64,000 nt of DNA, taken from the IMG/VR virus record IMGVR_UViG_3300028048_003161. One strand, 5' to 3'. The notes under the pieces are model-generated. The model ran no database searches, was not told the DNA's origin, and was given only the letters and a program-made list of their open reading frames with translations. Within the stretch, counting starts at the first letter, position 1; each line of letters begins with the position of its first letter. This DNA comes from a virus (Duplodnaviria > Caudoviricetes). The translations under genes and the position numbers were made by a program. Shown one piece after another: positions 3,281-38,099 of this stretch.

Positions 3281-3499
3281 AGGAAAGCATGTGAAAATGG
3301 AAACAGATGATGAGACACTAGATAGGGTATTATATAGTCATATGTTTTATAATAATAAAAGATAAGACCAAAAGCGGACAAGTTGTTAATGTGGTGTAAG
3401 CAAAGGATATGAATAAGACATTGGCTATTTGAAAATATGCAAAGTTTATTTTAGTATAAAAAGCAGTGTTTGAACGAGAAATAAGCATAGGTAGAAAAA

Positions 3500-5192: not shown

Positions 5193-5204
5193 ATGCAGTG
5201 GAGG

Positions 5205-5935: not shown

Positions 5936-6023
5936 AAAATTGGTTTAACTCTTATAACTTAAGGTTAAGCATAGAAACAAAAACTTATAAACATAGCAAA
6001 TTGGGAAAGGCAAGGTACAAACT

Positions 6024-7884: not shown

Positions 7885-7980
7885 GGGTTGCAGCAGGGTT
7901 GCAATGTGTTTAGTGCGACTAGCAGCCCTGTATAAAGTTAATCACTAAAAAAATAATTAAGCAAGCGGGAGGAATTAAGA

Positions 7981-9551
7981 ATGCTAGCAACTCATAGAGT
8001 GAGAGACAATAATAAAACAATTGGGTTTATAGTGAATGGAGTGTTTGCATCAAATATAACCATTAGACAGAATATAGGGCTGATTGACAATTTAAAAATC
8101 ACTAAGAATGGAGTAATCAAGGCAAAAAGAGATTACCCGAAGTTACTTATAGGGACAGTGTAATAAGGAGTCTGTACAATAAACTAATGAAGAATAATCC
8201 TTTTGTAAGAGATATTCAAAAGGACTTAACGCGCTGGAAACAAGACCCTGAGCATGGAATTTTACAGTTAGAGGGAGCAAGACAAATAGGCAAAACAACA
8301 GAAATATTGAAATTTGCATACAGAAATTATAAGTATGTTATCTATGTAAATTTAGCTAGTGACATGTATAAGTTTCAAAAAGCATGCGAGCAGGACATTA
8401 ATTACTTTACAATGCTTGACTATACAGAAAGAGCACATTTACCAGGGTATGTTGACAATAGGGATACAATACTAATTATTGATGAGATTCAAGAGAATAT
8501 GGAAATGTATAACAACATTAGAACATTTGCAAATAATCTAAATTGTGAAATCGTAGTAACAGGAAGTTACTTGGGCAGATTGTTAGCTGGGCTAAAGAAA
8601 CCAGATGAGGACACAGATAAAAAGGCATTTATACCTACTGGAATAGACCTATTAAATATGTATCCTTTATCATTTGCAGAGTTTTGCAGAGTTTTTAATG
8701 CAGAGGACACATTAATGAGCATAAGTTTATATGGAGAGTCATCTGACAGGAAATATAAGAAACTTGATAAGCTGTATGATATATACAGACAAATAGGGGG
8801 TTATCCAGCAGTTATAAAAGAATATATTAAGACACAGGATATAAGTGCATGTCATATGAGAATTGGAAACTTACTTGAATTATTCAAGGCAGAGTCTAGA
8901 GAATATTTTCATGATGAGGTGGAGATAGAAATATTTGACATGGTATATGATTATACACTTTATGAAATGTGTTCAAATCATGCTGGAACAGCTAAGAGGA
9001 CCATAAAAGATGTGACAAGAATAGTAGAAGATAAAACAAAAGGCATGACATCAACTAGGGAGTTGAGAAATGCAATCACTTGGCTAAGGTATTCGGGTAT
9101 ATTGGGTACTTGTATATTGGCAGAAAATGGAGAGACATCATTCTCTACAGTAAAAAAGTTTTACTTTTTTGATTGTGGCGTTACATCTTATTTGGCTAAG
9201 AGAGCAAATATAGATGCTAGCAGTCTAGATGGAATAATTACAGAGACATTTGCATTTGATGAGTTGATAAGATTATACAGTAAAAATACAAAAGATCCAA
9301 AAGTTAGACCTTATTTGTACTATGGTAGACTTGGTAATTACGAATTAGACTTTTTGGTTTGCAGTACAGACAATAAGAAGTATGGAATAGAAATTAAAAC
9401 TAATACAGGAGATCCTAAATCTCTAAAGCAGTTTTTGAATAAAAGGCTTGTAGATAAGGGGATAGTTGCAAAAAGAACAAAGGGTGGGCACTCTGAAAAA
9501 TTGGATACAATACCAATATACACAGTTGGTTGCAGATTTCCTTATAAATAA
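7981..9551 (+). CDS. AAA ATPase (AAA_14-like) plus DUF4143-like PD-(D/E)xK domain; upstream leader ORF 7981-8163 separated by a frameshift at A5 (8124-8128)
   Basis: Walker A GARQIGKTT, Walker B LIIDEIQ, VTGS, GGYP, C-terminal ELDF...IEIK. Adding one A reads AKKRLPEVTYRDSVIRSLYNKLMKNN into ORF 8187. Confidence 0.8.
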
Positions 9552-9576
9552 CAAATAAGTAGGAGGATTTGATAAT

Positions 9577-9913
9577 ATGTCATCATACAAAGTAGTAACA
9601 GCTCAGGGAAAAGTTGAGGTAGTTGAAGCAAATTCACCTTTAGCAGCAGTGGAAAAAATATACTAGCACTGTATTAGATTTAAGCATAAAAGCAATAAGA
9701 CTAACAACAGAAGAAGCAATGAACAGTGGTTGGCAGTTTAGAGCAGAGCTATTAGAGAATGGGGCTAAGGCTAAAAAGAGTTATTACAGAGTAGAGGATA
9801 GAGAGGAATATGAAATTAGCATAAACAATTTTTTTTACCGGACAAGATCGGAAATGAATAAAAATTATATAAATATGTATAATATACAGTTTCAAGTCAG
9901 AACTATACATTAA
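9577..9913 (+). pseudogene. small hypothetical gene split at A6 (9653-9658)
   Basis: AGGAGG RBS plus ATG 9577 (MSSYKVVTAQGKVEVVEANSPLAAVEK); removing one A joins it to ORF 9719. Confidence 0.55.
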
Positions 9914-10212
9914 GAACACTTTTCTGAAAAGGGAGTAAATTAGCAACAGGCAGACATTAACACCCTACACTATTGTGATTATTTGATTCTACATTACAAT
10001 TAGATTCTGATATAAGAATATAGCACTCAATGTTGATTGTGTTTTAAAATTTAGAAATCTACATTAAAAATTGGTATTTTGACATAAAAATAAAAGTCAT
10101 TATACATGAAATGTGATTTTCAAGTAATACATTAAGTGTTAAATGTGAGATTCAAATACACATAGATAAATTAGATAAGCGTTAGATAAAAATTAAATAA
10201 CATGAGTAAATT

Positions 10213-10275
10213 ATGAGTGCAGTATAAGGTTATTGTTTAGACACAACAATAATTCTATATTGCACTTATTTTATT
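10213..10275 (+). terminator. long hairpin/terminator
   Basis: GAGTGCAGTATA...TTATTGTT...AACAATAA...TATATTGCACTT followed by ATTTT. Confidence 0.5.
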
Positions 10276-10318
10276 ATGTAATACATTAGTAACTGCATTG
10301 AGATTGTGATATTTGTCC

Positions 10319-10347
10319 TTGACAAATGATGGAAAATGTGCTATAAT
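10319..10347 (+). promoter_or_regulatory. consensus sigma-A promoter upstream of the family B cluster
   Basis: TTGACA-17 bp-TATAAT with TGn extension. Confidence 0.85.
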
Positions 10348-10497
10348 GATAATAGAAATTTTAGAGAAGTTTTATGGGCTATATGAAAACTAGTTATCAA
10401 TTATGCTTAGCATGAAATAAAAATAACTAGACACCTAGCAGTTATAGTATCATTAAAAATAGTAGTTTGCATTGATTAAATTAACATAGTCATTACT

Positions 10498-11142
10498 ATG
10501 TTAAGGTTTAACAGTGGATATAGCAGGAGTAGTTTAATGTTAGAACTTCAAATAGTAGAGAATGGACAAGAAAAAATAAAGATAGAATTATTGCAGAGGT
10601 TAGTTAGGTGTCCTATAGAGAATCCTCACAGTATTAGATACACTATGATTAAGGATAATGTACCTACAAATGTTTATGTTGACATGTGGGGTGATGAGAA
10701 CATCACATATAGTAAGTTAGCAACTTCTTTTGGTACAATAGATTTATGCTTAGACTTTGTGATGGGGCGTATAGCAATTGTTGATTTTAACAGTACAAAA
10801 GAGACAGAACAGAGATTAAATAAGCAGTTGCAATGTTTGTCAGATGAGGACAATATTCTAGTAAAGACAGACAATGAGATATTTAATGTTAGCAGTTTAT
10901 TTGATGTTATGCTAATTACAAGTAATGATAATTTCAGTACAGAAGTTAAGACTGCAGGTGGTGTAGCTAAGATGTACTTGGAAATAATAGATAGAAATAC
11001 ATTTATAAGAAATCATTGGGCATATTATTGTATAAATAATATAAAGGTAGAACAGTTAGAAGAGACTTTCTACTTTTTGGATATAAGAGGACTTTCGAAT
11101 ATTACAGTGGAGCAAGGACAGGATGAAAATGAGCAGTATTAA
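10498..11142 (+). CDS. orphan family B member
   Basis: LQIVENGQEKIKIEL ... NILVKTDNEIFNVSSLFDVMLI. Confidence 0.7.
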   Translation: MLRFNSGYSRSSLMLELQIVENGQEKIKIELLQRLVRCPIENPHSIRYTMIKDNVPTNVYVDMWGDENITYSKLATSFGTIDLCLDFVMGRIAIVDFNSTKETEQRLNKQLQCLSDEDNILVKTDNEIFNVSSLFDVMLITSNDNFSTEVKTAGGVAKMYLEIIDRNTFIRNHWAYYCINNIKVEQLEETFYFLDIRGLSNITVEQGQDENEQY

Positions 11143-11806
11143 AGAGAAGTTAAACATGGCAAGATTGAGCATCACTAAAAAGAAAAATAAATTAGATAGT
11201 TGTACATTAACAATTATTGAGAATAGCAGAGTCAAAGTGGTGTTTGACTTCAATAAACCCCTTTGGAATGGTAGGTTTATTAGCAATCACAATATTGTAG
11301 GTTTACATACACTAATAAATGGTAGGAAAGGCATAAAATTTGTTACAGCAACCACTAGTTCAAGGTGTGTATTCACCAAAGATTGTGATCACTACTTACA
11401 ACTAACATATAACTTTGGTACAATACTCGTGGAGTTTAATAGTAGAGGCATTGTCTATGGACTTTGGATGTCTAATAAACCTTTTTGGTTTACAGAGAAA
11501 TACACATGGAAAATAAAAGATAAGCATGCAATTACAGAGAAGGACAATATAATTTTAGAGGTCAACGGTGATAAATATGACTTGTTTAATGATATGGACA
11601 ATACAATGGTAATGCAGGTGATTGGACGAGATGTAAATAATACATATAGATTGGTGAATGAAGAATGTGAAGTTTGTTTGGAAATTGATTCAGATAAACA
11701 AGACACAGAGGATAAAAAGGGTATACCTTATTTCTTTAGGGCGCAACTTGGCAGGGATTCAAGAGGAGCATTTACTAATGGGTGGCTTTTAAGTAAATGT
11801 AAATAG
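11123..11806 (+). CDS. orphan family B member
   Basis: LTIIENSRVKVVFDF ... NIILEVNGDKYDL..MVMQVIG. Confidence 0.7.
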   Translation: MKMSSIKEKLNMARLSITKKKNKLDSCTLTIIENSRVKVVFDFNKPLWNGRFISNHNIVGLHTLINGRKGIKFVTATTSSRCVFTKDCDHYLQLTYNFGTILVEFNSRGIVYGLWMSNKPFWFTEKYTWKIKDKHAITEKDNIILEVNGDKYDLFNDMDNTMVMQVIGRDVNNTYRLVNEECEVCLEIDSDKQDTEDKKGIPYFFRAQLGRDSRGAFTNGWLLSKCK

Positions 11807-11848
11807 ACATATAGAAAAGAATAAGGGGCATAGGAAGTAGAACATAGT

Positions 11849-12347
11849 ATGGAAATAACGAGACTTAAGGTAATTGAGAATGGACAATTAACATATAACC
11901 TGGACTTATCAGAAAAAAGTGTTTATACACAGAGGAATGGTTGGAATGGTTTGCAACATACCTGCAGTTGTGAATGGTAAGAAGCAAATATTAGAAATAA
12001 CAAGCATTAAGGTTTTTGATTTATTAAATTGTCAAATAAATTTGTCATTTGGTAATTTGTTCATAAGATTTAATAAAAATGGCATACTGACTAGTGTGTG
12101 TCTTGAGAATTATGTTCCTTATGGACATGTTCAAAAAGTGTATAGACTTGATAAAGATAACAATGTGCAAATAGAAACAGACGAAGGTACATATGACATT
12201 GATGAGACAATCAGTGTAAAGTTTATGTTGGACAATGTAGAGTATGATAAGTTCATACACCTGGATGCTAACTCAACATTAAAACTTTTTAAGGAGTCAA
12301 GTAAATGTGGATTTCCTGCACTAATGTGGGAAGTTGAAAACTGGTGA
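11849..12347 (+). pseudogene. orphan family B member split at A6 (11913-11918)
   Basis: ATG 11849 gives MEITRLKVIENGQLTYNLDLSEK (family N-terminal motif); removing one A joins ORF 11919 (NVQIETDEGTYDIDETISVKFML). Confidence 0.7.
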
Positions 12348-12410
12348 TTAAGAAGTGAGGACAGACAGTACTAGAAAATGGTATGACAGGATAATGGAAA
12401 AGATGGACAG

Positions 12411-12935
12411 GTGGAAAAGATGTTTATATTTAATAGAAAGAAAGATTGGGACACTGCAAAGTATACATTGACAATGATATTAGATGGGCAAGAAGTTTTT
12501 ACAGTGGACCTTACTGAAAAGTTGAACAAGCATAAAATTAAGAATTGGATCCGATGTTCTAAAGAAGTAAAGGAACGAATTGAGTTTATCATGGATGGTG
12601 TGCAAGTATCACTTCTATTTGTTGGTATCATCATTACATTTAACTTGAATACCTTGGGTTATGTGACAGGGATAAGCATATGGGGAAGTTTTAATTTTGC
12701 AGACTTAGATGAGGCTAGTGATATAATTTTAAGACTTAACGATGAGGAGTTTAGTGCATATGACATAATAAACATGGCTAATATGTTGGGTATGAGAAAT
12801 GGATATAAAGCAGATGGCAGTTACTTCACAGTGAATACACATGATGAAATACTTCTTGACAGTTTGACAATTAACTTTGGCAGTACTATAAAGTGGTCTG
12901 ACATGATCAATCAGAAGATGCAGCATGAGGGATAG
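12411..12935 (+). CDS. orphan family B member
   Basis: LTMILDGQEVFTVDL ... IILRLNDEEFSAYDIINMANMLG. Confidence 0.7.
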   Translation: MEKMFIFNRKKDWDTAKYTLTMILDGQEVFTVDLTEKLNKHKIKNWIRCSKEVKERIEFIMDGVQVSLLFVGIIITFNLNTLGYVTGISIWGSFNFADLDEASDIILRLNDEEFSAYDIINMANMLGMRNGYKADGSYFTVNTHDEILLDSLTINFGSTIKWSDMINQKMQHEG

Positions 12936-13179
12936 GATCAGGGAGAATAAAAAGATTGACCTTAATGAAATAGTTAGTTTGGCTCAAATGTTGGGTGCTG
13001 GCTATGATAAGGAGTATGTTACAGAGTATAATAATGCAGTTGCACGATTGGCTATGACTAGACTTAACTATTCAAACAGAGATGCAATAAAGCTTGAGAT
13101 TGATATTGATTATACTAAGTTAGACAAAGAGGAAGAAGAGTGGTTTAATAAAGTAATAGGAGAAACATTGGGAGTTTAG
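12925..13179 (+). CDS. orphan family B, C-terminal half only
   Basis: KKIDLNEIVSLAQMLG matches the family C-terminal motif. Confidence 0.55.
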   Translation: MRDRIRENKKIDLNEIVSLAQMLGAGYDKEYVTEYNNAVARLAMTRLNYSNRDAIKLEIDIDYTKLDKEEEEWFNKVIGETLGV

Positions 13180-13261
13180 ACAATAGACAGGAGGATAAAT
13201 AGTGGACAGGGGATAGTAAAATAGACATGAAGGATAATGAAACAGACAGGAGGATAAATAG

Positions 13262-13822
13262 TTGATATCATTAAAAGTGTTTAGCGATACGAAAGAAATG
13301 AATTTTGATATAGGTAAAAGGGTCAAAATGCAGACAAATGGTGGACTAGTAGAGACAGATACTGGACAGATAGAAATGAATTATAGACATATAACATGTT
13401 CTAAGCATATAAGTAAACTCCTTGGCTGTAAGTATATTCATGAGTTCCTTGGTTCTTCTGTATTGTCATTTAGAATAGATGAGACAGGCAGTATTAAAGC
13501 TATTTATTTTACATTTGGAGTTGATTCTTATGCATCACATAAAGTAGGACAAGCAATGGGAAATGGAGAGATACAGAGGAGTTCAGAGTTTATAATTATA
13601 ATAAATGATGAGGTCATTGACATAAATGAAGAATTGGCAGTGTTTAATATGTTAGGATATACTGAAGGAGTTTATGACATTGATAGTAAATATGTCACAG
13701 CAACATATGAGGTAAAGAAGAGTCCTTCCATAGGTAGTATGTATAAGACACTTGTTACAGTGGAGATAAAATGTGAGCAGGGTTTTGACAAGTTAGAAAA
13801 TTTGGAGGACAAACAGGTTTGA
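13262..13822 (+). CDS. orphan family B member
   Basis: AGGAGG RBS, TTG start; IIIINDEVIDINEELAVFNMLG. Confidence 0.7.
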   Translation: MISLKVFSDTKEMNFDIGKRVKMQTNGGLVETDTGQIEMNYRHITCSKHISKLLGCKYIHEFLGSSVLSFRIDETGSIKAIYFTFGVDSYASHKVGQAMGNGEIQRSSEFIIIINDEVIDINEELAVFNMLGYTEGVYDIDSKYVTATYEVKKSPSIGSMYKTLVTVEIKCEQGFDKLENLEDKQV

Positions 13823-14209
13823 TGGTTTGGTGTAGTTGTGCTTTGTTGTTATGAAAACAGACACACTAAGGATAAGTTGAGATTTAATTTGTTATGACAG
13901 TGCTAATTTAATAGAGTTGGCATGACCAATAAAGTGTAATAGCATTATAGATAAAAATGAAAGTAATTAAATTAGAAGAAAACTAGGACAATTTGTAAGC
14001 AAGTATTAAAAAGAATTAGACAATGGACTAATATGATAAATACACTTGAAATTTAGAGTGGACAATGAATATCAATAGGGATAGCATTGCAATTAAATGC
14101 TATAGACAATAGTAGTTTAATTTGGTTTGGATAAATAGACAGAAAATAGTATCAAGCGATACACAAGATTTGAAAATAGATAAGCATTTAGGTTTGGAGG
14201 TATAGACAC

Positions 14210-14695
14210 TTGGAAATGAAAGGCAGTTGTAACTTAATGAAAGACAGTGTAGAAAAAGACATTGATAAAGATTTCATAGAACTTATAGAAAATGGTAAGG
14301 TACTCCTAAGGTTAAATTTGGAACAAGAAATAGGGTTAATTGCTACAGACAACCTTTATACTAGTTTTGAATATGATTTAACATTTGATAAAATTTGTGG
14401 TAAAATAGTAAAGAAACCTAGTAAGCTCAGGTTTGGAGATACCAGCATAAGATATGAAATCAATGGACACGGGTTTAATGTGTACGCAACAATGAGACAG
14501 ATTAAGACCATTGAAGTTAAAGACATACTTGGGTTAGATATGAGATTACATATAAATGGTAATGATGCATTGGTGTCAGACCTTATGGAAGTAAGTAGTT
14601 TAGTTTCAGGAGATTTAGATACATTGTTTGAAAATAAGTGGAGACTTTCAGAGATTGATTCAACAGTGATATTAAGTAGAGAAAAGCAGTGTTAA
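14210..14695 (+). CDS. orphan family B member
   Basis: IELIENGKVLLRLNL ... LHINGNDALVSDLMEVSSLV. Confidence 0.7.
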   Translation: MEMKGSCNLMKDSVEKDIDKDFIELIENGKVLLRLNLEQEIGLIATDNLYTSFEYDLTFDKICGKIVKKPSKLRFGDTSIRYEINGHGFNVYATMRQIKTIEVKDILGLDMRLHINGNDALVSDLMEVSSLVSGDLDTLFENKWRLSEIDSTVILSREKQC

Positions 14696-14717
14696 GTTGA
14701 AAGGAGATTGAGACAAA

Positions 14718-15233
14718 ATGACCGATAGCATTGAAAGAAAAGAGAAAGACACAGAGAGAAAAATGGGTTACCTTGCTGCTAAATATAAGGGCAAAGAGGT
14801 ATTTAGAATGTACATGTATGGAGATAAGAATAGACTTGTGAAAAATGAGGATAACACAGACCTTAAGGAAGAAGGCTTTGAGATTAAGACAAAGAAGGCA
14901 GTGGATGGAGAAGTATGTTCAGAGGTAATTGAGGTTAAGCAGGACGAAGTTTGTATGCTTGCAGTGACTAATGTGTATGTGCAGGGTAAGGTTTCATATA
15001 GACTTTTAGTGACCTTGAAAGACAGTTTAATCGTTGACATTGAATATGTAGACAGTAATGGAAATATCAATGACTTTAAGAGCATGAAAGATGTGCAGGC
15101 AATGTTGGGTAGCAGTACAGAGAATGGTTTGTACAGAGACAGTAATGTTATAGTTGAGGACTATAGTGGTAATGCTGGGCAGTTTGGATATAGGTATATG
15201 TTTGAAATAAATGGCATTGGTAATGTGTTATAA
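14718..15233 (+). CDS. orphan family B member (divergent)
   Basis: RBS AAGGAG; LAAKYKGKEVFRM ... NGNINDFKSMKDVQAMLG. Confidence 0.65.
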   Translation: MTDSIERKEKDTERKMGYLAAKYKGKEVFRMYMYGDKNRLVKNEDNTDLKEEGFEIKTKKAVDGEVCSEVIEVKQDEVCMLAVTNVYVQGKVSYRLLVTLKDSLIVDIEYVDSNGNINDFKSMKDVQAMLGSSTENGLYRDSNVIVEDYSGNAGQFGYRYMFEINGIGNVL

Positions 15234-15244
15234 CAGGGGTCTAA

Positions 15245-16155
15245 AAACCAGATGCAGTGGGCGATTAAAGGGGGATGCAGTGGACAGTTTGAGGGTGAAC
15301 CATAGGAGATAGTAGGGTTGATGCATAGCGATTAAAAAGAGTGATGCATAGGGATTAAAAAGGTTGATGCACTGGAAATAATGAGGGTTGATACATAGTA
15401 AAATTAGTGTGTTGATGCATAGGTAAAATAAAAATTGAGTCATGGGTGTTAAATTTGATAATGCACTGGTGGAAATTTAGATGCTTGGGTAGGAAAATTT
15501 AATATACATAGTAAATTTAGGAAAAATGATACCATTGGTGCTAAAAGGGATGCAGTGGTCTAAAAGGGTGTTGCATGGGTATAAGAGAATGATATCATTG
15601 AAAAGGTATTGTGATACCAGTGGTATAAAAAAGATGATACCTTGGTATTGTGTTTAGTACCATAGTTTGAAAAAGTGAGGTACCATTGGTATAAAACTTG
15701 ATGCTCTGGTAGAAAAGGATAATACCAGTGGTCTAAAGGAATATACCATTGGTATAAGGTTGTTTGTATCATTGGTATAAGGTTGTTTGTATCATTGGTA
15801 TAAGGTTGTTTGTATCATTGGTCTAAGAGGATAATACCAGTGGTCTAAAAAGTGGATGCTTAGGTCTAAAATGGTTTGTAACATTGAGAGGATAGGAGTG
15901 TAGCACTGGTTAAAATGGAGATACTAGGGCATAAGAGAGTGATGCTTTAGTATAAAATGGTAATACCATTGGAAAGATGTGGTGATACCAGTGGTGGATA
16001 AGGGTGATACCAGTGGTATAAAGTGATAATACCATTGGTGAAAAAAGGTAGATACTTTGGTATTAAATAAATGTACCATTGTTGTAAAAGGTAGATGCTT
16101 GGTTAAACAGTAAGGTGAGGCACTGCCTTTGTGAGAGATGCCATTGGTCTAAAAG
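15245..16155. repeat. GATGCA/GATACC-core array II, 21-23 bp period, including 3 perfect 23-mers CATTGGTATAAGGTTGTTTGTAT (15747-15815)
   Basis: Cores at about 15251, 15274, 15297, 15320, 15343, 15366, 15390, 15414, 15437, 15460, continuing to ~16140. Confidence 0.85.
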
Positions 16156-16194
16156 AGTTATAACAGGTTGGTTTATTGAGAGGACTATTGTAAA

Positions 16195-16635
16195 ATGGAT
16201 AATAGACTTACAATTAAAAAGAATGACAATAAAATTATAGAAATAGACCTTAATGATAAGTTTGTGGTACAACAGGCAATTGGAAAGAGATATGAAATTA
16301 AGTATCAGTTCCCTGTTTGTTATAGAGATAAACTTTTGGAGATAGAGAATAATGCAAGTGGTACTGGGTTATACTATGGAAAGTTAACTGTATACGTGAA
16401 TAAAAAGTCTTTTGACGATAGTATTGGAGATATAGCCATATATAATTGTACCAAGGACTTTGATTTAGAGGTTGTGTGGAAAAATGAAGTGATAAATGTA
16501 CAGGAGTTATTGGATATTAGGACTATGGTTGGAATGGATAATAGCATTACTATTGATAGGCAGGGTTTTAGAATGTATTGTATGAGGCAGGGTTTGTTTA
16601 GAATTAGTCTATATAATAGTAATATGTTACAATAA
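16195..16635 (+). CDS. orphan family B member
   Basis: LTIKKNDNKIIEIDL ... VVWKNEVINVQELLDIRTMVG. Confidence 0.7.
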   Translation: MDNRLTIKKNDNKIIEIDLNDKFVVQQAIGKRYEIKYQFPVCYRDKLLEIENNASGTGLYYGKLTVYVNKKSFDDSIGDIAIYNCTKDFDLEVVWKNEVINVQELLDIRTMVGMDNSITIDRQGFRMYCMRQGLFRISLYNSNMLQ

Positions 16636-16649
16636 GTAAAAGGAAATGA

Positions 16650-19600
16650 CTTATGGATTAAATTGTGTGGACATCCAGTAGTATAGATAATATGATAAAT
16701 TGGTATGTTATTAGACAATGAAGGCTCTAGTTTTGTAATGTAATAAACAATAAGAAAAAGAGAATGACATATGAAAGTTTAGTTGTATGTGTGTTAGGAT
16801 AAATTGGTGTGTTATTGGACAATAAAAGGTCTAGTTTTGTAATGTGAGTGACAATGAGAGAGTGGAGTATAGACAGATAGGAAATAAAAAGAATTATGAG
16901 TGAGATTATGTGGACATTTAGGTGTTTGTGTATTATGATAAATTGGGTTGTTATTGGACAATGAGAGGTCTAGTTTTATGGAATAAATGACAATAAGAAA
17001 AAGAGGTATAGACAGGTAGAAAAGGTTATGAATAATAGTAGTTTAGATAGAACTTTTATAAAATAGTAATAGGCATTTAGATGTGAATAATAAGAGAAAA
17101 AGTGCGCTTATTGGTCTTTTGTTGATCAGGTTTTGTGAATAAAATCACATGCAGTATTAAGGGATAGATAAGTAATGATTTGGTGTAATAACATTCGATA
17201 GGATAAAAGAGATTGAAAGTATATTGAATAGACAATTTGATAAGTGAGAGTTGTCTTTAGTTAAAAGAGAATTGACCTTTGATTGTGATATAGACAATTA
17301 AGAAAGAATAGGAGATTGAATTATGTGGAATAGACATTGGTTTTAATATATGAAATAAAATAATGAAGTATATGGACTTAGGTGTTTTGGTTGATATGCT
17401 TTGATTTTGGTATTAGGTATTTGTGGTTTATTGGATCAGACAATGATTTTGTGTGTAGACTATGTGTGTGGACAATTAGAAAAATGGAAGTAACTTTTGG
17501 TTAAAAAATAAGTTGCTTTTATTAGGAAATAAAGTATAAAATAGTTAATGAGAGGAACAATTGTGTTGTGTTATATACAATTGTTTTTTATTGCTAAGAG
17601 ATAAAGAAAATTAGATAACCAGTGACTAAATTGTTGAGGTGTTGAATATGTGTGAATTAGGCACTGATAGGTTTGGGAGTGACTTTTGTTAAAATAGATA
17701 GAGATAGGAAAGAAGGATAATAGACTTTTATTTTGATTAAGTAAGATAAAGGAAAAGAGTGGATGGCTTTGATTATGATTGAAAGAGATAATGAAAAGGG
17801 TAGATGGACATTTATTAGAATTGAAGGAGATAAGGGAAAAGATAGAATGGCTTTGGTTATGATTGAAAGAAATATAAGAAAAATTGAAAGAGATATGATA
17901 AAAGAGTGAAGGACTTTTGTGTTGTAATATGGAGTTAGAAATGTTTGGTTTATATTTGGAATAAATTGTAAAGGACTTTGATTGAAAGATAATAGGACTT
18001 TGACTAAAAGAGAAAGAGATAAGAGGACTTTGACTAAAAGAGAAAGAGATATAAGAAAAGAGAGAGGATCTTTGATTAAAATTGAAGTGTTTTGTGTTTA
18101 ATTGAAACTACTTTTGAAAATTGAAATTGGTTTTGAATGAAAGATAATAGGTCTTTTGATAAATGAAAAGGACTTTTTGGAATTTGAAAGAGAAATTGGA
18201 ATTGGTTCAGGACGTTTTATTTTTGAAAATGATTAGGAAATAGACATTGTTTTTATTAAAGTTAGAAAAATATTTAATAATAAAATTTGTGGTATGTTAT
18301 AGGATTTTGAATTGGTTGGGAGATATGTTCCAGATTTAAAATTTAAGGGATTTAAGGGATTTTTGGTGGATTTTGATATAAATGTATGGGTGGGGGATAT
18401 TGGTTGAAACGTGAGTATAACAAGAAATTTTTATTTTATTTTAGTTAAAAAATTAGTTAATTTTGTTATGTAATTTGAAAAATGAACGACGTTTTGATTT
18501 TTGTTGTAGGTCTTGATTAAAAAATTGAATGTGCTTTTTGTAAAAATTGAAAGAGAATTTGAAAAATGAATTAGACTTTTGTTTTGTGAATTGATGTTTT
18601 GGAGAAAGTGAAAGAGATTGAAATAAAATGGAAAGACTTTGATTAAAAGTGAAAGAGATTGAAATAAAATGAAAAGACTTATGTTAAGTGAGGTAGTTGT
18701 TTTGATTTGTGGAATTAGACTTTTGTGGAAGTGATAGGTGTTGAAATGTTGAATAGTTAGTCTTTTATTAAAAGTGGTGGAGATTGAAAGAAAATGTGAT
18801 AGACTTTGGTTAATAAGTGATTGTGTTGGAATATATGGGATAGGTCAATGATTGTTTATGGTGAGTGTTGGGAAAATATGAATTGGACTTTTGTATTAAA
18901 GATAGGAGATTGAAATGATTGTTAATGGACTTTTGTATTAAAGATATGTACAATTAGTTAATGAGATAGTGTTTAAAGGTAGGTGGATAGATCAATGGTG
19001 TTTGTGATAGGATTGTTAGAATAATGGTATTGACCTTAGTGTTTTGATATGAGGGCTTTTGGTATTTTGATAGGTATTGAAAATAGTATAGGGTAGACAA
19101 TAGGGAAGTGGTAAAGAGATTGAAGTTGGGTGGGAATAGACAATAGGAAAGTGAATGGTTTGGTGGTTTGTTTAAGTGGACAATTGAAATGAAAGTAAGG
19201 TATGAGAGTTAGTGTGAATAGACAATTAAATTATGATAAGGAGTTTTAATAAAATAATAAGTTACTTTGATTAGATATGTATGGTGTTTTAGAAAAGAGT
19301 AATAGACAATAGCAAGTGTGATAAAGTAGGTGTGTGGACAATGAGTAAAAATTGAGAGAGATAAAAAAATTGATAGATAGACAATGTGGAAATAGTGATA
19401 TACCTTGTGATAGTTGATAAGTGTTTTAAAAAGATAGAATAGGCAATGAATATGGTTGATAGATTGTTGTGGTGTTTGAGGTAGACAATAACTTTTGTGA
19501 TAGTCGACTTTTATATGAATTGTGGGATATGAGAAATAAAATAAATAGCAATTATATTTGTATTTAGACAATTGAAAATATAGATAGATTTGATAGTAAT

Positions 19601-20010
19601 TTATGTATAGACATTGATATGAGTAATTGAATATTTTATGATAGATAGAATAGACAATTTAGTGTCTAGTTTTGAATTGAAATAGACAATGTTAATTGTA
19701 AGTAGGTGTTGTTAAAATTGATAGATATACATTTGATTTGAAATATGTCAATGACTAGTTTATTTAGACATTTAAGAAAGGAGTTGAATTAAAATAAACG
19801 AGATAGAGTAGACAATTTTAGGTCAAGTTTTGAAAATTGGTTGACATTTGAAAGTGGGTGAAAGATATGGGAATTTAAGTATAGACACTTAAGGTAAATA
19901 GAGAGTAAGAAATAATGTCTTTTTGGCTGACTAGTTATGAAAAGATATAGACATTAGCTAGTTAAATAGACAATAAAATAAAGAGTGACTTTAGAAAAGG
20001 AGAGATAGAC
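16650..20010. repeat. ~3.3-kb non-coding, C-poor region of phased GAC(A/T)(A/T)T boxes; candidate origin/partition site
   Basis: No + strand ORF of 60 aa or more; dozens of TAGACAAT/GGACTTT boxes at ~21, 32, 42-43 and 62-63 bp spacings; ~70-bp unit x3 near 16692, 16797, 16935. Confidence 0.65.
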
Positions 20011-20697
20011 ATGGCTAAGAATTTATTAGACGAGAGTAAGGTATATTTACCTAATTTTTATAACAATGGAGAATGGGTTGAAAACCCTACTTTGAAAGTG
20101 GCAGGCAAAGATATAGATAAGAGAGTCATTGAGTTTATGGAAGAATACTATAGATTTTTGTTTAATAGCACATTTTTAACAATGGCATCTTTGTTGTGGT
20201 TAGAGAGTAACCTGTCAAGTGTGAAAAAGACCATTGAATTGTATAATGAGAGTTGTTATGAGGTTGATAGATTGAATATGAACACATCTCAAACTAACAT
20301 TATGCATGATAAAAAGAGACTGGAAAAGTACTTTAGCCCTGAATTGTTTAAGAATATCATGTATTATCCAGAGGAGCATTTGGAACAGGCATTTGAGACC
20401 CTTGCTCAGCTTGAGTTAAAGTATATGAAGAAAAGTAAAGAGTATAGAGAGTCTTTGGTGGTTAAGGTGCCTAGGACAGTGTTGTGTAAGAGTGTTGACG
20501 ATAATACATGGGGGTTATTGAAGCAGTTTATTAACTGTTATAGTAAGGAACGTATTAAAAAGATTGAAAGACTTGAGGACGAAACAGTTGTACCTGCTGT
20601 AATTGGTTATTACAATTATTTGATTAGTAATAACAGGTTAAGTGAGGTAGATAAGCAGAGGTTACATGAAATTAGACAATTATTGTGTTTGGAGTAA
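20011..20697 (+). CDS. hypothetical protein, paralog of 21362
   Basis: RBS AAGGAG; C-terminal IGYYNYLISN. Confidence 0.75.
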   Translation: MAKNLLDESKVYLPNFYNNGEWVENPTLKVAGKDIDKRVIEFMEEYYRFLFNSTFLTMASLLWLESNLSSVKKTIELYNESCYEVDRLNMNTSQTNIMHDKKRLEKYFSPELFKNIMYYPEEHLEQAFETLAQLELKYMKKSKEYRESLVVKVPRTVLCKSVDDNTWGLLKQFINCYSKERIKKIERLEDETVVPAVIGYYNYLISNNRLSEVDKQRLHEIRQLLCLE

Positions 20698-20811
20698 GAG
20701 AGGGAAATAAAATGGGCAGACTTATTGTAAAGGTATTAGACAGTGTTGAGAATTTTCTAACAGTAGTGTCTGATTGGTTTTATGAATAGAAAGATAGGAG
20801 GCACATGAGAA

Positions 20812-21090
20812 ATGTTTAGGAAAGTAAGAAGATTGTGTATGGACCCTAGAAAGGATAAGGAGCCTAAAATGCACTCTTTGTATGAATGTACAGGCAAGGT
20901 AGGTACAGGCCCAAGCACTATGATTTGGTTTTTGGACGAACCAAAAGTAGGTGAGACAGTGTATGGAGTAAGTAGTGATGATAGGGTGTCACCTTATATG
21001 GGAGGACAGGCATTTAGATATGATGAGTTTCATCCTTATGTGATCGACAATGTTTATATGACAGGCTTTGTGATTTGTCATTATTCATAG
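20812..21090 (+). CDS. hypothetical protein
   Basis: AGGAGG RBS upstream. Confidence 0.55.
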   Translation: MFRKVRRLCMDPRKDKEPKMHSLYECTGKVGTGPSTMIWFLDEPKVGETVYGVSSDDRVSPYMGGQAFRYDEFHPYVIDNVYMTGFVICHYS

Positions 21091-21317
21091 AGAAAAGATT
21101 GATAGACAATGGTAAAGGAGTGAATACAGTGAGTAATGTAAGATACTATTTGATAATTGGACTTATATTGTTGATTATGATACTTCCAACAATTATGGTG
21201 TTCTTTAATACATCAATACACATTGATTGTTTAGTGGCACGTATTGTTTTAATTTGTTGGGCAGCTTTTATTATTCTTCTTGTTTTACCTGATAAAAAGA
21301 ATAAGACAAATAAGTGA
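21075..21317 (+). CDS. small two-TM membrane protein
   Basis: Two hydrophobic segments; start uncertain (AAGGAG precedes GTG near 21129). Confidence 0.5.
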   Translation: MSLFIEKRLIDNGKGVNTVSNVRYYLIIGLILLIMILPTIMVFFNTSIHIDCLVARIVLICWAAFIILLVLPDKKNKTNK

Positions 21318-21361
21318 CTAGTTATTGGAAAGGTAAGCATTAAGAAAGAGAGGTAAGTACA

Positions 21362-22126
21362 GTGCATACAGACGCGGTCAAGGTATTAAAGAAATACTAC
21401 AGTGATATTGAGAAATATAAGCTGACAGGTGCCAAAGAAGGCATTATGAATTATGTGGACGAGACACGATTGGGAAAGATTGAAACACTCTTTGACATTG
21501 TGTTCAATAGTGACAACATTACAGACGAGACTAAGTTCTTTATTAAAACAGATATGTCATTAGCTGAGGTTAATAGGGAAGTAAATAGGTTGCGTACAGA
21601 AGTATCTAGGAGACTTAAGAAAAATATAAGAGAGACATCTTATAATAATACAACGACAGTTGTTAAGAGAGATTGTACTAAATTAGAGAGTGTATTGACA
21701 GATAAGTTTTTAAGGTCAATCGCTTATGATGAAGTACTTGACCAAGAGGAATATAAAGAGACATTATTAAAAATGTTAGATACTTTTGGAGAGAGAAATA
21801 ACCTTAGAAATAATTTGAATATACCTATTGATACAGACATATGTGAAAAGAGCGACAATGTTGATAGTTCAGACTTCTTTGAAATGTTAGAAAGTCTGCA
21901 GGTTTATTTGAGTAAGAGAATTGACTTAATTATTAAGGCAGTTAATGATGACAGGGACTTTGTTGGGTATTTTAACTATCTCTTGAGTAATAAAGGATTG
22001 CTTGACGAAACAGTGCAAGAGGACAGAAAGAAGTTGATTAAGTTCTTGAATAATGAACCTATCGACAGTGACGAAGATAGTGAGCATTTAGAAGAAAGTG
22101 ATAACAGCGAGGGTATAGAGGTTTAA
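21362..22126 (+). CDS. hypothetical protein, paralog of 20011
   Basis: C-terminal VGYFNYLLSN; acidic tail. Confidence 0.75.
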   Translation: MHTDAVKVLKKYYSDIEKYKLTGAKEGIMNYVDETRLGKIETLFDIVFNSDNITDETKFFIKTDMSLAEVNREVNRLRTEVSRRLKKNIRETSYNNTTTVVKRDCTKLESVLTDKFLRSIAYDEVLDQEEYKETLLKMLDTFGERNNLRNNLNIPIDTDICEKSDNVDSSDFFEMLESLQVYLSKRIDLIIKAVNDDRDFVGYFNYLLSNKGLLDETVQEDRKKLIKFLNNEPIDSDEDSEHLEESDNSEGIEV

Positions 22127-22177
22127 TTAAGAAGTACATATAATATGTACATAACAGCAACTAGTTGTTAAAAATTA

Positions 22178-22328
22178 TTGACATTTGGAAAAATGTAGTA
22201 TAAAATAGAAATAAATGGAAATAATCAAGGAGTTTGTGCAAATAGCATGAAAGGAAAGAAATAATTTTGTAGAATTTCGTAGGAATTTGCTACATTATGT
22301 TGACAAAATTTGGCAGATAGTATATAAT
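22178..22328 (+). promoter_or_regulatory. tandem sigma-A promoters for the uvrD operon
   Basis: TTGACA-17-TAAAAT (22178-22206) and TTGACA-17-TATAAT (22300-22328); palindromes GTACATA-taa-TATGTAC and CAACTAGTTG just upstream. Confidence 0.75.
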
Positions 22329-22365
22329 ATTAGGGTAGACATTTTATGGTGCAAGTTGTAGAAAG

Positions 22366-23682
22366 TTGAGGTCGTTCATGTTAAAAAAGAAGTTAAAGGA
22401 AATTTATAGTGTAGACACTATAAGTCAAAATAAAAGTTGGGAAAAAGTAGAGGAACAGTTAAAGCAGTTTGAGGGGCAGGAGATGGAATTGGATATGACA
22501 GGGGTAAATGTAATTGACCCTTGGAATTGTGATTCGTTCAAGAATATTATTAAGAATGACAATCTGTATTTGAAATTTACTAATGCAGAGGATACAGCGA
22601 ACAAGATTAAAATGATATATGTGCTTCAGGGTTTAGACCATAGACATGTAATCAACGAGGTAATTGAGACAGAAGCGGAAAAGACACCTGAAGAAATTAA
22701 GATAGAAACATTTGGAAAAGCTTTGATGCCTTATTTTAAGAAGGACGAGCAGACAGGAATTGTGACCTTTGTAGTTGCAGATAAGTTCAGTCAGTTGCAT
22801 AACACACTAACAGCGAATTATGTGAAATATGTAGTTGGAGAAATGAGCAGGGAGCAGGGAGTTACTGATTTTATCATTGATTTAGGTAAGCTAAGCATCC
22901 TTGATAATGTCATTGAGGCATTCGTTGAGGTTATTACATATTATGAAAAGTTGGGTATCACAATTGAAGTGAATACCGACATTCCTGACACACAAAAGCA
23001 ATTCAAGTTATTTTTATACAAGAGTAAAGCAAAGAATTATACAGAGGCAGAAAGATTGCAGGAGTTTAAGAAGTTGAAGCCTGGCACTGCTGGTATACTC
23101 ATTAAGTATAAAAAGAGTAGAGCACTTGATGATTTTGGTAGACATGGTAAAGGTGAGGTAGTGTCTAGTAGAATAGCAAGATTCTTGGGCATTACAAATA
23201 GTAAGCGTGGACCTATGTTTTCTGTGGAGACATATAATCAGAATACTTTCTACACACATTTGAATTGGGCACTTGAGCATGATATGGAACAGCCTACAGA
23301 ATTAAAGTCAGACAAGCTGGATATTGCATTGGAACAGATTGGTTTTGACAATAAGTTTATGGGTAGTAGCTATCATTTTCTGTTTCCTGTGCAGAGGGAT
23401 AAGTCAGAAAGCATCAATGTTATTGTGGACATTGATGAAAATGGTTATAACATCAAAAAGTTAATGACAATACCTGAAAGAATGAAAGAAGTCTTTGATG
23501 ATTGGGAGATTGAATATGATCATGAGTCATTGGACAAGTTTATTGGGCAGACAAAAGAGAAGTTAGCTCAGGCAGAAAAAGAGGAAGAGCAGGGCGAAGA
23601 TAAAGAGACACAAACAGAAATGGGACAAGTTGCATTGGACAATGAAGGACAAGCAGACTTAAATAAGAATGGACAGGTATAA
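22366..23682 (+). CDS. hypothetical protein (438 aa)
   Basis: Long ORF directly upstream of the helicase gene. Confidence 0.75.
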   Translation: MRSFMLKKKLKEIYSVDTISQNKSWEKVEEQLKQFEGQEMELDMTGVNVIDPWNCDSFKNIIKNDNLYLKFTNAEDTANKIKMIYVLQGLDHRHVINEVIETEAEKTPEEIKIETFGKALMPYFKKDEQTGIVTFVVADKFSQLHNTLTANYVKYVVGEMSREQGVTDFIIDLGKLSILDNVIEAFVEVITYYEKLGITIEVNTDIPDTQKQFKLFLYKSKAKNYTEAERLQEFKKLKPGTAGILIKYKKSRALDDFGRHGKGEVVSSRIARFLGITNSKRGPMFSVETYNQNTFYTHLNWALEHDMEQPTELKSDKLDIALEQIGFDNKFMGSSYHFLFPVQRDKSESINVIVDIDENGYNIKKLMTIPERMKEVFDDWEIEYDHESLDKFIGQTKEKLAQAEKEEEQGEDKETQTEMGQVALDNEGQADLNKNGQV

Positions 23683-23694
23683 AGGAGAATAGAT

Positions 23695-25971
23695 ATGAGT
23701 GAGTATCTGGACAAATTGGAACAAGAGTTGAGGTCAGAGGGCGTTGGGGCATCTCTGACATCTTCTAGTGCATGTGTATCTCCAAGTGACTTTGATTTAA
23801 GAACTATACTTGAGATTGAACAGATTACAGGGTTTAAGTATAGTGACGAGCAGAAAGAAATTCTTAAGTACAGAGGTAATGCTTGTATTCTTGCATGTGC
23901 AGGTAGTGGAAAGACAAGTACAACAGTACACTTGATTGCAAAGAGAATCAAGACAGGAGAGATTAAAGATGTCAACAAGTTGGTTTATGCAACTTATAGT
24001 AAAGCTGGCAAAGATGAAATGAAAGATAGACTTGACAAGTTACTCAAGCAGCTTGGAGTAAATAAGCAAGTCAAGGTTTGTACATTACACTCTTTCTTTT
24101 TGAATATATTAAGACTCTTTGGTGTTACAGCAGACATTATCAAAGATGGGGATAGACGCAGAATGATTTTAGAGTCATGTAAAGATGCAGGGTTTATTCC
24201 TAAGGATGATGAATTGATGACAGTTGATAATTTAATTTCATATCAGATTAACTGCTTGTTATCAGATAGGAAAGCCATTGAATGTCCTGTGAATACACTT
24301 GAAGATTTGACTCTTGAGCAGTATTCTGCTATTAGGGCAGGGTATACTAATAGGAAAACAGCAGCTAAGTTAATTGATTATGATGATATGCAAACTTATC
24401 TCTACTTGTGGGTGGTCAAGTTTGCAAAAAGTCCTAACCCTCAACAAAGTGAGACAGCACGTCAGATTAGACAGTATTGTCAGGCAATGTGGCATGACTT
24501 CTACATTGATGAGGCTCAGGACGTCAGTAAGATTCAATTTGCTATACTTAAGGGATTGATTACTAATCCTGAAGAACCTAATAAGTTGGTTGTGAATTTG
24601 ACACTGATTGGTGATGATGATCAGTGTATTTATGCATGGAGAGGTAGTGACCCGAGTATTATTTTAACAGCAGCACCTATGTTCAATATGAGAAACTTTG
24701 TGTTAAGTACAAACTACAGGTGTAAGAGTGAGATTGTCAATTATGCAGCTACAGGCATTGTGTTTAATGACAAGAGGTTTAATAAGGGGATGTCAGCTCA
24801 TGAAGAGGGTGGACAGGTCAAAATTGCAGTATCACGTAGAAAAGATTTGTGTTCATTAAGTATTGTAGGGCTTAACCAGATTAAGAAATGGATTGAGCAG
24901 GGAGATAAAGAATCAGACATTGCAGTACTGGTAAGAAATAACTTTCAAGCATCTATTTTGAGTAATATGTTGCTTAGGGAAGGAATATATTGTGCATGTA
25001 CAGAGGAATCTAAACTTACAAAGAGTAGTATGTATGCAGATATTAAGATGCTGATTGAAATGTGCGAGCCTTGTTGGAAAACAGCAGTATTGAGCAATAT
25101 GCTTTGGAAAATGTGTAAGTACATGAATACTGGTACAGCTAGGGCAATTGCTAACTTTCAGGATTCAAGTGCATTGAGCATTAAAGATGCTCTTGGTTGG
25201 CTAATTAAAGAGTTTATTGACACTTCAATTCAGTTTAATGCAAAGGTCACAGTTAGCCTGCAGTCAAAAGAGAAAATGAGATACTACATTAACAGAATGA
25301 TGAATGACACTAAGGCTGATATGATTGCATTATACAATGCATTATGCTGTGAGGATAAGGCACAGTGTTTAAGAACCTTAACTACATTCTATTTAACTTC
25401 AACAGGTTTCTTGTACAAAACAGAGGATAAACAGAGGTCAATAACTGGACTAGTTGTGTATATTAACAACCTTGTGAAAAAAGATGGGTTTGATAACATG
25501 AAAGACTTCTTGAGAGTGACCGAGCAGTATGAATCAGGTAGAATGGGTATTATTGGAGATAAATTGACCATTTCAACAATTCACAGTGCAAAGGGTAGAG
25601 AGTGGAAAGACGTGATCATGCTTGCATGTGATAATGTGAGTCAACCATCATTTGATGGAATAGTCAAGATGATAGATGACGGTGTACCTGTTGCTGATAT
25701 ATGTGACAGATTGGATGAGGATAGACGTCTGTTCTATGTAGGTAATACAAGAGCAAAAGAAAACCTGCTTATTGTTACTTATGTAGAGCCTAGTGTATTT
25801 ATTCTTGAAGCATTAGGTTTATTCAAGGCAAAAGATGGATTTTCAAACAACAGTAAAATTGTTGAATTAGCAAGTGCAGGAGAGGGGCTTGGACCTTTCA
25901 AGGGTGTTGCCGACGACCTGTTATTAAAGAAAGACAGTAAGTATTTTTATGAGATAGACTGGCAGAAATAG
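23695..25971 (+). CDS. SF1 ATP-dependent DNA helicase, UvrD/PcrA family
   Basis: ACAGSGKT, IDEAQD, IGDDDQCIYAWRG, NYRC, AVLVRNN, STIHSAKGREW, RRLFYVGNTRAK. Confidence 0.95.
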   Translation: MSEYLDKLEQELRSEGVGASLTSSSACVSPSDFDLRTILEIEQITGFKYSDEQKEILKYRGNACILACAGSGKTSTTVHLIAKRIKTGEIKDVNKLVYATYSKAGKDEMKDRLDKLLKQLGVNKQVKVCTLHSFFLNILRLFGVTADIIKDGDRRRMILESCKDAGFIPKDDELMTVDNLISYQINCLLSDRKAIECPVNTLEDLTLEQYSAIRAGYTNRKTAAKLIDYDDMQTYLYLWVVKFAKSPNPQQSETARQIRQYCQAMWHDFYIDEAQDVSKIQFAILKGLITNPEEPNKLVVNLTLIGDDDQCIYAWRGSDPSIILTAAPMFNMRNFVLSTNYRCKSEIVNYAATGIVFNDKRFNKGMSAHEEGGQVKIAVSRRKDLCSLSIVGLNQIKKWIEQGDKESDIAVLVRNNFQASILSNMLLREGIYCACTEESKLTKSSMYADIKMLIEMCEPCWKTAVLSNMLWKMCKYMNTGTARAIANFQDSSALSIKDALGWLIKEFIDTSIQFNAKVTVSLQSKEKMRYYINRMMNDTKADMIALYNALCCEDKAQCLRTLTTFYLTSTGFLYKTEDKQRSITGLVVYINNLVKKDGFDNMKDFLRVTEQYESGRMGIIGDKLTISTIHSAKGREWKDVIMLACDNVSQPSFDGIVKMIDDGVPVADICDRLDEDRRLFYVGNTRAKENLLIVTYVEPSVFILEALGLFKAKDGFSNNSKIVELASAGEGLGPFKGVADDLLLKKDSKYFYEIDWQK

Positions 25972-37894: not shown

Positions 37895-37984
37895 ACGAGA
37901 AAGAGCATGCAGAGGCATAACAAGGGCTAAGCATTAAAGAAGGCAAGCTTCAAGATTATACAAAAGAATAGGGCATATGACAAT

Positions 37985-38026: not shown

Positions 38027-38099
38027 GATCATAGGGTACAAATAAAAATATGTTTTTATTAAAATTTAAAATAAAAAGAGAAGGCAGAGGGTTTTAATG

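Follow-up and report, generated by a model that had tools for sequence, protein, structure and literature searches.

A cytosine-poor tract of helically phased boxes in a giant gut-bacterial element: a candidate platform for DNA-binding proteins and possible origin region

The 64,000-nucleotide stretch of DNA filed as IMGVR_UViG_3300028048_003161 (hereafter the window, whose positions serve as coordinates throughout) carries a 3.4-kb C-poor, non-coding tract (16636–20010) in which roughly 60–70 short boxes, 8–10-bp words that read on the plus strand, are set whole turns of the DNA helix apart from their neighbors. The tract is the largest gene-free region in the window, and its zoned layout recurs in a related contig from the human gut. 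The most likely reading is that the tract acts in cis as a DNA platform for sequence-specific proteins, which would assemble along one face of the helix, and that its role lies in the replication or partition of a giant plasmid-like gut-bacterial element. Of the more specific functions considered, a vegetative origin region of this ~450–500-kb element, equipped with iteron-like arrays, is ranked first, as a tentative proposal that is still more apt to be wrong than right; a partition site and a transcriptional platform follow, level with each other, then a functionless satellite and, last, an RNA-level element. Recognition of giant extrachromosomal elements in gut Firmicutes is recent, and the tract, as the clearest cis-acting candidate on this one, offers a starting point for a mini-replicon or stability cassette and for the genetics of an uncultured element class.

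Phased boxes in a non-coding tract

The 3.3-kb region free of open reading frames (ORFs) described in the initial annotation of the window is borne out by the present analysis. There is no plus-strand ORF of 50 or more amino acids (aa) between 16636 and 20010, the products of 98 ORFs from the window and its relatives gave no tblastn match to the tract (best E = 0.054), and no codon (3-nt) periodicity was detected in it (period-3 power ≤ 4.8). With nothing below E = 0.05 in either this tract or its counterpart in the related contig L001, no codon periodicity, and no conserved small ORF preceded by a ribosome-binding site (RBS), a decayed gene is rejected. An RNA gene is likewise rejected, as the tract contains no Rfam family (E ≤ 1) and no tRNA or tmRNA (ARAGORN).

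The composition of the tract is equally distinctive. Between 16650 and 20010 the plus strand consists of 1265 A, 132 C, 804 G and 1160 T (37.6% A, 3.9% C, 23.9% G and 34.5% T), in comparison with a C content of 11.3% for the whole window and 10.0% for its other intergenic DNA, in which G amounts to 21.5%; four-fold degenerate sites across the window are ~50% A, 35% T, 8% G and 6% C. Judged against the other intergenic DNA and the four-fold degenerate sites, the tract is truly C-poor, even for an element as skewed as this one. The C that remains is concentrated in particular words, with 63 of the 132 residues located in GAC, in agreement with the earlier remark that the plus strand is nearly devoid of C and that much of what is left falls in GAC boxes.

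The boxes are of two types, (a)aTAGACAAT/TAGACATT in 34 copies and (G)GACTTT(T)G in 33 (both by our own counting rule), and the words of the two array types are also written here as TAGACAAT arrays and GGACTTTG arrays. Many of the (G)GACTTT(T)G boxes are followed, ~21 bp later, by AAAGAGAT(T)GAAA. The initial annotation had placed GACAAT, GACATT and GACTTT in one class; the boxes themselves are confirmed, but the single type is replaced by two, which are arranged in zones. The enrichment is pronounced: RGACWWT is found 40 times in the tract against 2.9 ± 1.7 expected from 500 dinucleotide-preserving shuffles, and TAGACAAT 14 times against 0.14 expected from the shuffles. The orientation is equally biased: RGACWWT reads 40 times on the plus strand but just once on the minus strand, and the same-orientation run of boxes extends, as originally described, right up to the start of the downstream gene, ORF 20011, the final box being located between its RBS and its ATG.

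The Fourier spectrum of all C positions in the tract shows one dominant peak, at 10.49 bp, with a power of 32.8 (the maximum from 300 random sets was 12.4), and for boxes of the form G[AGT]C[AT][AT]T, 45 of the 57 spacings differ by no more than 1.5 bp from k × 10.5 bp (chance 0.33; binomial p = 2e-12). This Fourier check confirms the spacings near multiples of 10.5 bp that had been read from the box positions in the initial annotation. Adjacent boxes are mostly four turns apart (n = 22) but also two, three, six or eight, and never five or nine. Runs of exactly 42 bp exist locally (17683–17851 and 18720–18930), yet the whole-tract power at 21.0 and 42.0 bp is only ~0.6, because the three-turn (32-bp) and six-turn (63-bp) spacings shift the 21/42 register while keeping the 10.5 register. 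Both box types share a common helical phase of the C (CA 6.7 bp and CT 6.6 bp at period 10.49), and the linkers between boxes carry ~0.1 bit of information whereas the box core is retained. As AA, TT and A-tracts contribute little power at 10.5 bp (~5) and the signal stems from the C-containing boxes, intrinsic curvature is rejected as the source of the periodicity, which instead reflects the phasing of the boxes. No comparable 10.5-bp signal is present anywhere else in the window.

The claim of phasing over kilobases stands in one respect and falls in another. Neighboring boxes are indeed separated by whole turns; however, when compared with a random walk of local spacing errors, the coherence of a single phase over 3.3 kb has p = 0.016 in the window and p = 0.47 in L001, so that one rigid phase across the tract is marginal in the former and absent in the latter once local quantization is allowed for. 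The safe claim is that adjacent boxes lie whole turns apart, rather than that one rigid phase spans 3.3 kb.

Zoned layout and conservation

The boxes follow a nested order, all in direct orientation: a GACAAT array, a GACTTT array, a box-free core, a second GACTTT array and a second GACAAT array. Zone A (16693–17010, plus strand) comprises three copies of a ~65-bp element that start at ~16693, 16797 and 16936, each a composite GACAAT-N5-GTCTAGTTTTG-N10-GACAAT with its two boxes 32 bp (three turns) apart; the same composite unit appears again at 19655–19687 and 19813–19845. In Zone B (17040–17500, plus strand; 88–94% identity to L001) TAGACAAT-type boxes are mixed with GTCTTT-type boxes. A conserved palindrome block (17400–17660; 94–97% identity to L001) contains the 8-bp palindrome ACAATTGT twice, 21 bp apart (arms at 17556–17564 and 17577–17585), which would constitute an operator-like pair in the classic paired-operator arrangement. 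Array C1 (17683–18245, plus strand) has GGACTTT(T)G boxes on a 42-bp lattice, five of them exactly 42 bp apart from 17683 to 17851; its units also bear AAAGAGAT(T)GAAA, and it varies between relatives by indels of 233 and 63 bp. Array C2 (18576–19056, plus strand), on the other side of the core, has GGACTTT-type boxes, also on a 42-bp lattice, six of them exactly 42 bp apart from 18720 to 18930. Finally, Array D (19098–20010, plus strand) consists of 22 boxes of the (a)aTAGACAAT/TAGACATT type, and 16 of their 21 spacings correspond to whole turns. Tandem Repeats Finder detects C1 and C2, with periods of 42, 21 or 30, but no repeat in Array D, where the linkers are without mutual similarity.

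The box-free core (18250–18560) is AT-rich and 0.3–0.5 kb in extent, and the block that surrounds it (18090–18590) is 93–99% identical to L001. Of the six least stable 60-mers in the window, two (18227–18286 and 18416–18475) lie in the core, as do GGGATTT repeats 9–10 bp apart and ATGGGTGGGGG, the last of which is shared with L004, a relative of 44% identity. The box-to-box distance across the core is 331 bp in the window (18245–18576) and 333 bp in L001 (8232–8565), or ~31.5 helical turns, and the arrays that flank the core may thus face opposite sides of the helix.

Homologues of ORF 20011 are present on large metagenomic contigs, from which four loci were fetched for comparison. The most informative, L001, comes from the 464,735-bp human-gut contig ORTT01000003 and has 78–93% DNA identity to the window, and its tract (L001 6266–10000) displays the same five zones. 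Around the core and in the palindrome block the two sequences align at the identities given above, and so better than in the flanking genes (82–93%); C1, C2 and part of D have 46–62% identity and are effectively unalignable, with indels of 233, 63, 42, 21 and 21 bp. The phasing is nevertheless kept in L001 despite this turnover, with 47 of 59 spacings on whole turns (p = 4e-13), and the unalignable L001 segment by itself reaches a phasing power of 20.4 from 25 C. In the alignable parts, the box C is conserved in 34 of 35 cases and other C in 38 of 54 (Fisher p = 0.0017), and box positions G−2, C and T+3 are conserved at 0.91–0.97 versus 0.66–0.86 for the flanks. As units turn over with box and spacing kept, and as the linkers of Array D are free of information, selection rather than mere repeat ancestry is indicated; the comparison thus supports purifying selection on both the box word and the spacing. 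The proposal in the initial annotation that C has been retained in phased boxes through selection for a protein-binding scaffold is thereby strengthened, with phasing that is significant, no decayed gene, and a tract that is conserved in L001. The pair of tracts amounts to a natural spacing experiment, in which units turn over fast while whole-turn spacing and an 8–10-bp word are kept, and in which the depletion of C marks the constrained bases.

Substitutions between the window and L001 within 16650–17700 are strand-asymmetric, with 74 A<>G against 9 T<>C although A and T are nearly equally common, and plus-strand T is the most conserved base (95.6%).

The more distant loci L004 (44% protein identity) and L003 (40%) have only ~550 bp of non-coding DNA upstream of their ORF 20011 homologues, in which a TTCC(N)GGAA-like palindrome, ATGGGTGGGGG and repeats resembling GGGATTT make a version of the core recognizable. 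Neither locus shows enrichment of the boxes in its non-coding DNA, and their conservation in distant relatives is therefore rejected. These comparisons indicate that the core is old and that the arrays are an expansion specific to the lineage of the window and L001. In L004, three small genes with clear codon periodicity (2172–3339) stand between the core and the ORF 20011 homologue, at the position of C2 and D.

Searches of PLSDB and INPHARED with blastn and tblastn returned no matching plasmid or phage, and IMG/VR gave no match by protein or DNA pattern; the description of the replicon as previously undescribed is thus a fair one. The plasmid pXO16 was considered as a culturable relative of the locus and rejected, as PLSDB contains no homologue of ORF 20011 or ORF 22366.

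Possible functions of the tract

A conserved, one-orientation array with whole-turn spacing and a meltable core is most simply explained by a sequence-specific protein that binds on one face and oligomerizes, bends or wraps the DNA, and it is on this basis that we infer protein binding at the boxes. Were the tract an origin region, opening or loading would take place at the core, while the flanking arrays would behave as iterons do, binding and oligomerizing an element-encoded protein; the array-bound protein might bend or wrap the DNA and might perhaps be titrated for copy control. Replication would then proceed rightwards, with transcription, and it would have to be unidirectional, since the genes and the G>C skew have the same polarity on both sides. 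Direct repeats at two- and four-turn spacing are the classical iteron geometry (R6K, RK2, P1 and Rep_3 plasmids), and two features of iteron origins are found here, namely one-orientation direct repeats at helically phased spacing and, beside them, an AT-rich, easily unwound segment (the core). The origin reading draws on this geometry, on the meltable conserved core, on the size of the gap, on the nearby helicase (the PcrA/Rep/UvrD-type helicase operon is 2.3 kb downstream of the tract) and on the parallel with the ‘Hodor’ megaplasmids of gut Bacillota, in which an AT-rich non-coding region of >2 kb is predicted by the authors, from context alone, to be oriV (PMC12934698). Also in its favor, either strand of the tract is predicted to be almost without secondary structure when single-stranded.

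Several findings weigh against an origin. No recognizable initiator adjoins the tract by Pfam, NCBIfam, PHROG or fold searches (ORF 22366 looked STAS-like instead), although one of unrecognized type may be encoded there, and the products of ORF 20011 and ORF 21362 are neutral to acidic (isoelectric points, pI, of 6.1 and 4.7), unlike expected DNA-coating proteins. The GC skew, ~ +0.3 across the window, is positive on both sides with no change of sign at the tract, and all credible genes are on the plus strand, which excludes a bidirectional origin; with the skew profile proposed in the initial annotation, followed here within the window, only a unidirectional origin would fit. DnaA boxes (TTATCCACA, ≤1 mismatch) are not enriched (32 in the window versus 28 ± 5.5 expected, with 4 near-matches in the tract), and an oriC-type origin built on such boxes is rejected. 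As distant relatives keep only the core, the arrays are lineage-specific and inessential to the role of the core, and the presence of a second class of array (the GATGCA type, described below) at several module boundaries suggests a more general, possibly transcriptional, role for arrays in this element. The initial proposal of an origin or centromere finds no confirmation in the genetic context, with no Rep, ParA, ParB or ParM-type gene recognized next to the tract.

Comparison with known systems places the tract in a familiar kind, that of phased protein-binding repeat arrays such as iterons, sopC and parC. It resembles the iteron origins (R6K gamma ori, RK2 oriV, P1 oriR/incA and lactococcal Rep_3) in having one-orientation direct repeats at about two turns or multiples thereof, placed beside an AT-rich meltable segment in non-coding DNA upstream of a conserved gene, and in these systems extra arrays can serve control. 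However, iteron origins contain 3–15 iterons over 0.1–0.4 kb, in comparison with ~60–70 boxes over 3.4 kb here, and their iterons are 17–22 bp long at two turns, whereas the boxes are 8–10 bp long and mostly four turns apart; the tract also has two box types in nested zones and no adjacent Rep_3, RepA or other recognizable initiator. In the F plasmid, sopC consists of 12 tandem 43-bp units bound by SopB. The tract shares with it a four-turn (42–43-bp) direct-repeat lattice with sites on the same face and a variable copy number, but its asymmetric, uniformly oriented boxes contrast with the 16-bp inverted repeats of sopC, and sopC is a 0.5-kb array of one motif directly after sopAB whereas no ParA or ParB is encoded near the tract. 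The parC site of plasmid R1 also has two sets of direct repeats that flank a core, as in the window and L001, with ParR bound to the repeats and the core left free (PMC2241845). It differs in being ~160 bp long, with contiguous 11-bp iterons directly upstream of parM. In the tract, the boxes are sparse and the arrays ~20 times as long, and downstream come ORF 20011, ORF 21362, ORF 22366 and a UvrD-type helicase rather than parM-parR. The putative oriV of the Hodors is alike in being a >2-kb non-coding AT-rich region of a >300-kb element of gut Bacillota, assigned from context only, but the Hodors have 44–47% GC and Rep_3 beside the region, and no helical phasing is reported for them (PMC12934698), whereas the present element, at 33% GC, lacks a nearby Rep_3 and is unrelated to the Hodors in sequence. 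As geometry is shared with iteron origins and parC but the genetic context differs or is equivocal, the tract is not assigned to any named family. What is new is its ~3.4-kb scale, its sparse asymmetric boxes mainly four turns apart, the two box types nested around a core, and the lack of a recognizable cognate gene. Should the tract turn out to act as an origin or a centromere, the size range known for arrays of this type would grow about tenfold. A bolder version, which we consider unlikely, is that a DNA-binding family of giant Firmicute elements, so far unrecognized, would form a micrometer-scale, one-faced protein lattice that combines origin firing with tethering or partition in one locus; if true, this would be a maintenance device ~10 times larger than, and built unlike, any plasmid iteron or centromere array.

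Two further functions are possible, each to be doubted somewhat more than the origin and neither preferred to the other. As a partition site (centromere or segrosome), the boxes would bind an adaptor that wraps the DNA into a ring or solenoid, and an actin-type (ParM-like) or other motor would capture the complex. The direct-repeat arrays on either side of a core, as in R1 parC (PMC2241845), agree with such a function. So does the match between the 42–43-bp unit and the 43-bp unit of F sopC, and the quick gain and loss of units with phasing kept is typical of centromere repeats; in addition, a presumably low-copy replicon of ~0.5 Mb requires active partition. Known centromeres, however, adjoin their par operons, and Pfam recognizes no ParA, ParB, ParM or ParR within 20 kb downstream of the tract and no actin-like gene in the window, where the sole ParA/MinD-like gene (55733) belongs to a Tad-pilus cluster. 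The form of the sites is a further difficulty, as the boxes are asymmetric and sparse (one per two to four turns) in contrast to the contiguous sites of ParR and omega and to the inverted repeat of sopC. Alternatively, the arrays may bind a regulator (as a repressor, silencer, roadblock or decoy sink) and so form a platform for transcriptional control or a boundary, which would keep the ORF 20011/helicase module insulated from the paralogue cluster upstream and would set downstream expression, with promoter and operators in the core. GATGCAT arrays with a period of ~21.4–22 bp lie upstream of genes in at least three other gaps, and a replicon has few origins; a TAGACATT box coincides with the expected start site of a perfect sigma-A promoter (box at 22336) and others are upstream of the genes at 14210, 42603 and 44139; and the two ACAATTGT palindromes 21 bp apart resemble an operator pair. 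The STAS-like domain of ORF 22366 has the fold of anti-sigma-factor antagonists, accompanied by a weak CarD-like match, and intrinsic terminators are not predicted on the plus strand from 7904 to 24627. Yet ~60–70 sites over 3.3 kb are far above any known operator region, boxes are not generally enriched upstream of genes, promoter-like sites are not enriched either (51 versus 43.8 ± 6.5 expected), so that a promoter cluster is rejected, and the resemblance of ORF 20011 to sigma region 4 (Z 3–3.9) is below a useful threshold. Hairpin terminators do occur on the plus strand elsewhere in the element, and protein roadblocks as substitutes for missing terminators are rejected on that account.

It is improbable that the tract is a functionless satellite, in which 21/42-bp tandem repeats have grown by slippage or unequal recombination and are now decaying, the phasing being a memory of unit length. 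The detection of C1 and C2 as tandem repeats is what such a history would leave, as are the 21-, 42- and 63-bp indels by which unit number differs between the window and L001, the absence of the arrays from distant relatives, and a long-range coherence in L001 that is no better than local quantization predicts. But the boxes and their whole-turn spacing persist in Array D, where the linkers have fully diverged and Tandem Repeats Finder finds nothing; the 32-bp spacings depart from the 21/42 register yet stay in the 10.5 one; the box C is preferentially conserved in a tract otherwise stripped of C; and both the strictly single orientation and the zone layout are common to the window and L001. 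Least probable of the named alternatives is an element that acts at the RNA level: the tract would be transcribed into a long leader or non-coding RNA, unstructured and free of C, that either serves as a sponge, its repeated words being bound by an RNA-binding protein, or evades Rho for want of C. The tract does lie between co-oriented genes with no predicted terminator upstream, its plus-strand RNA has less structure than is found elsewhere in the window (−18.6 versus −25.6 kcal/mol per 150 nt), and a C-poor, G-rich RNA is the opposite of a Rho-utilization site; however, the 10.49-bp quantum, which recurs here in 2, 3, 4, 6 and 8 units, matches the helical repeat of B-DNA and is meaningless for single-stranded RNA, and no RNA family was recognized, as noted above. 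The remaining probability belongs to something else.

Neighboring genes and other arrays

The gene immediately downstream of the tract, ORF 20011 (20011–20697, plus strand; 228 aa), is the conserved downstream neighbor of the core in all relatives found. The orphan family to which it belongs comprises 333 clusters at 50% identity, whose members are mostly 220–235 aa long and share an invariant GYxNYL motif. The model of ORF 20011 is confident and all-helical (predicted local distance difference test, pLDDT, 89), and, from its pI, the protein is not basic. Fold searches of PDB and BFVD gave no match, and longer family members also lack a Pfam or fold match. A Fis-like assignment (E = 0.014 with an 11-sequence profile) was discarded when the match disappeared with a 57-sequence profile, and the likeness to sigma region 4 is to be treated as a lead and not as a result. 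The next gene, ORF 21362 (21362–22126, plus strand; 254 aa), is a distant, acidic paralogue of ORF 20011 (22% identity, E = 4e-5).

A perfect sigma-A-type promoter (TTGACA-17-TATAAT; 22300–22328, plus strand) precedes the operon of ORF 22366 and the helicase, and its expected transcription start is at the TAGACATT box mentioned above (22336), which could be an operator for whatever binds the boxes. ORF 22366 (22366–23682, plus strand; 438 aa) is a core gene of related giant contigs, from a family without annotation whose 92 clusters occur on contigs of up to 672 kb. In its model (pLDDT 90), residues 116–221 are STAS-like (RsbS 6jhk, Z 9.2, root-mean-square deviation 2.9 over 96 aligned residues), and it is the beta-rich C-terminal part that has the weak match to CarD (Z 5.9). 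The superfamily 1 helicase of UvrD/PcrA/Rep type (23695–25971, plus strand) is in the same operon. ORF 20011, ORF 21362 and ORF 22366 match no Pfam, NCBIfam or PHROG family, and fold searches gave no Rep-like match for them. Upstream of the tract, the gene at 16195 was considered as a single-stranded DNA-binding protein (NCBIfam E = 0.014) and rejected, as a PDB search gave no support.

Three further non-coding arrays of one orientation are present in the window (5193–6023, 15234–16194 and 37895–38820), each just upstream of a gene. Their word is GATGCAT(AG/CAC), which drifts to the palindromic GATACCAGTGGTAT at 15.5–16.15 kb, and they have a period of 21.4–22 bp with runs of perfect 22–23-mers. 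Like the tract, these arrays (5.2–5.9, 15.25–16.15 and 38.1–38.8 kb) are non-coding, combine a short core word with free linkers at a spacing of about two turns, and end upstream of a gene; they differ in their motif, in a period that produces no 10.5-bp signal, in their length of 0.6–0.9 kb, in a normal C content (8.5–12%) and in lacking a conserved box-free core. Their occurrence in at least three intergenic gaps suggests that phased arrays at module boundaries are general in this element.

With regard to the wider composition of the element, the synonymous sites indicate that the strong G>C skew of its coding DNA is carried mainly by non-synonymous positions (purine-rich codons), and the highest synonymous GC skew (0.37) is found in the genes that surround the tract.

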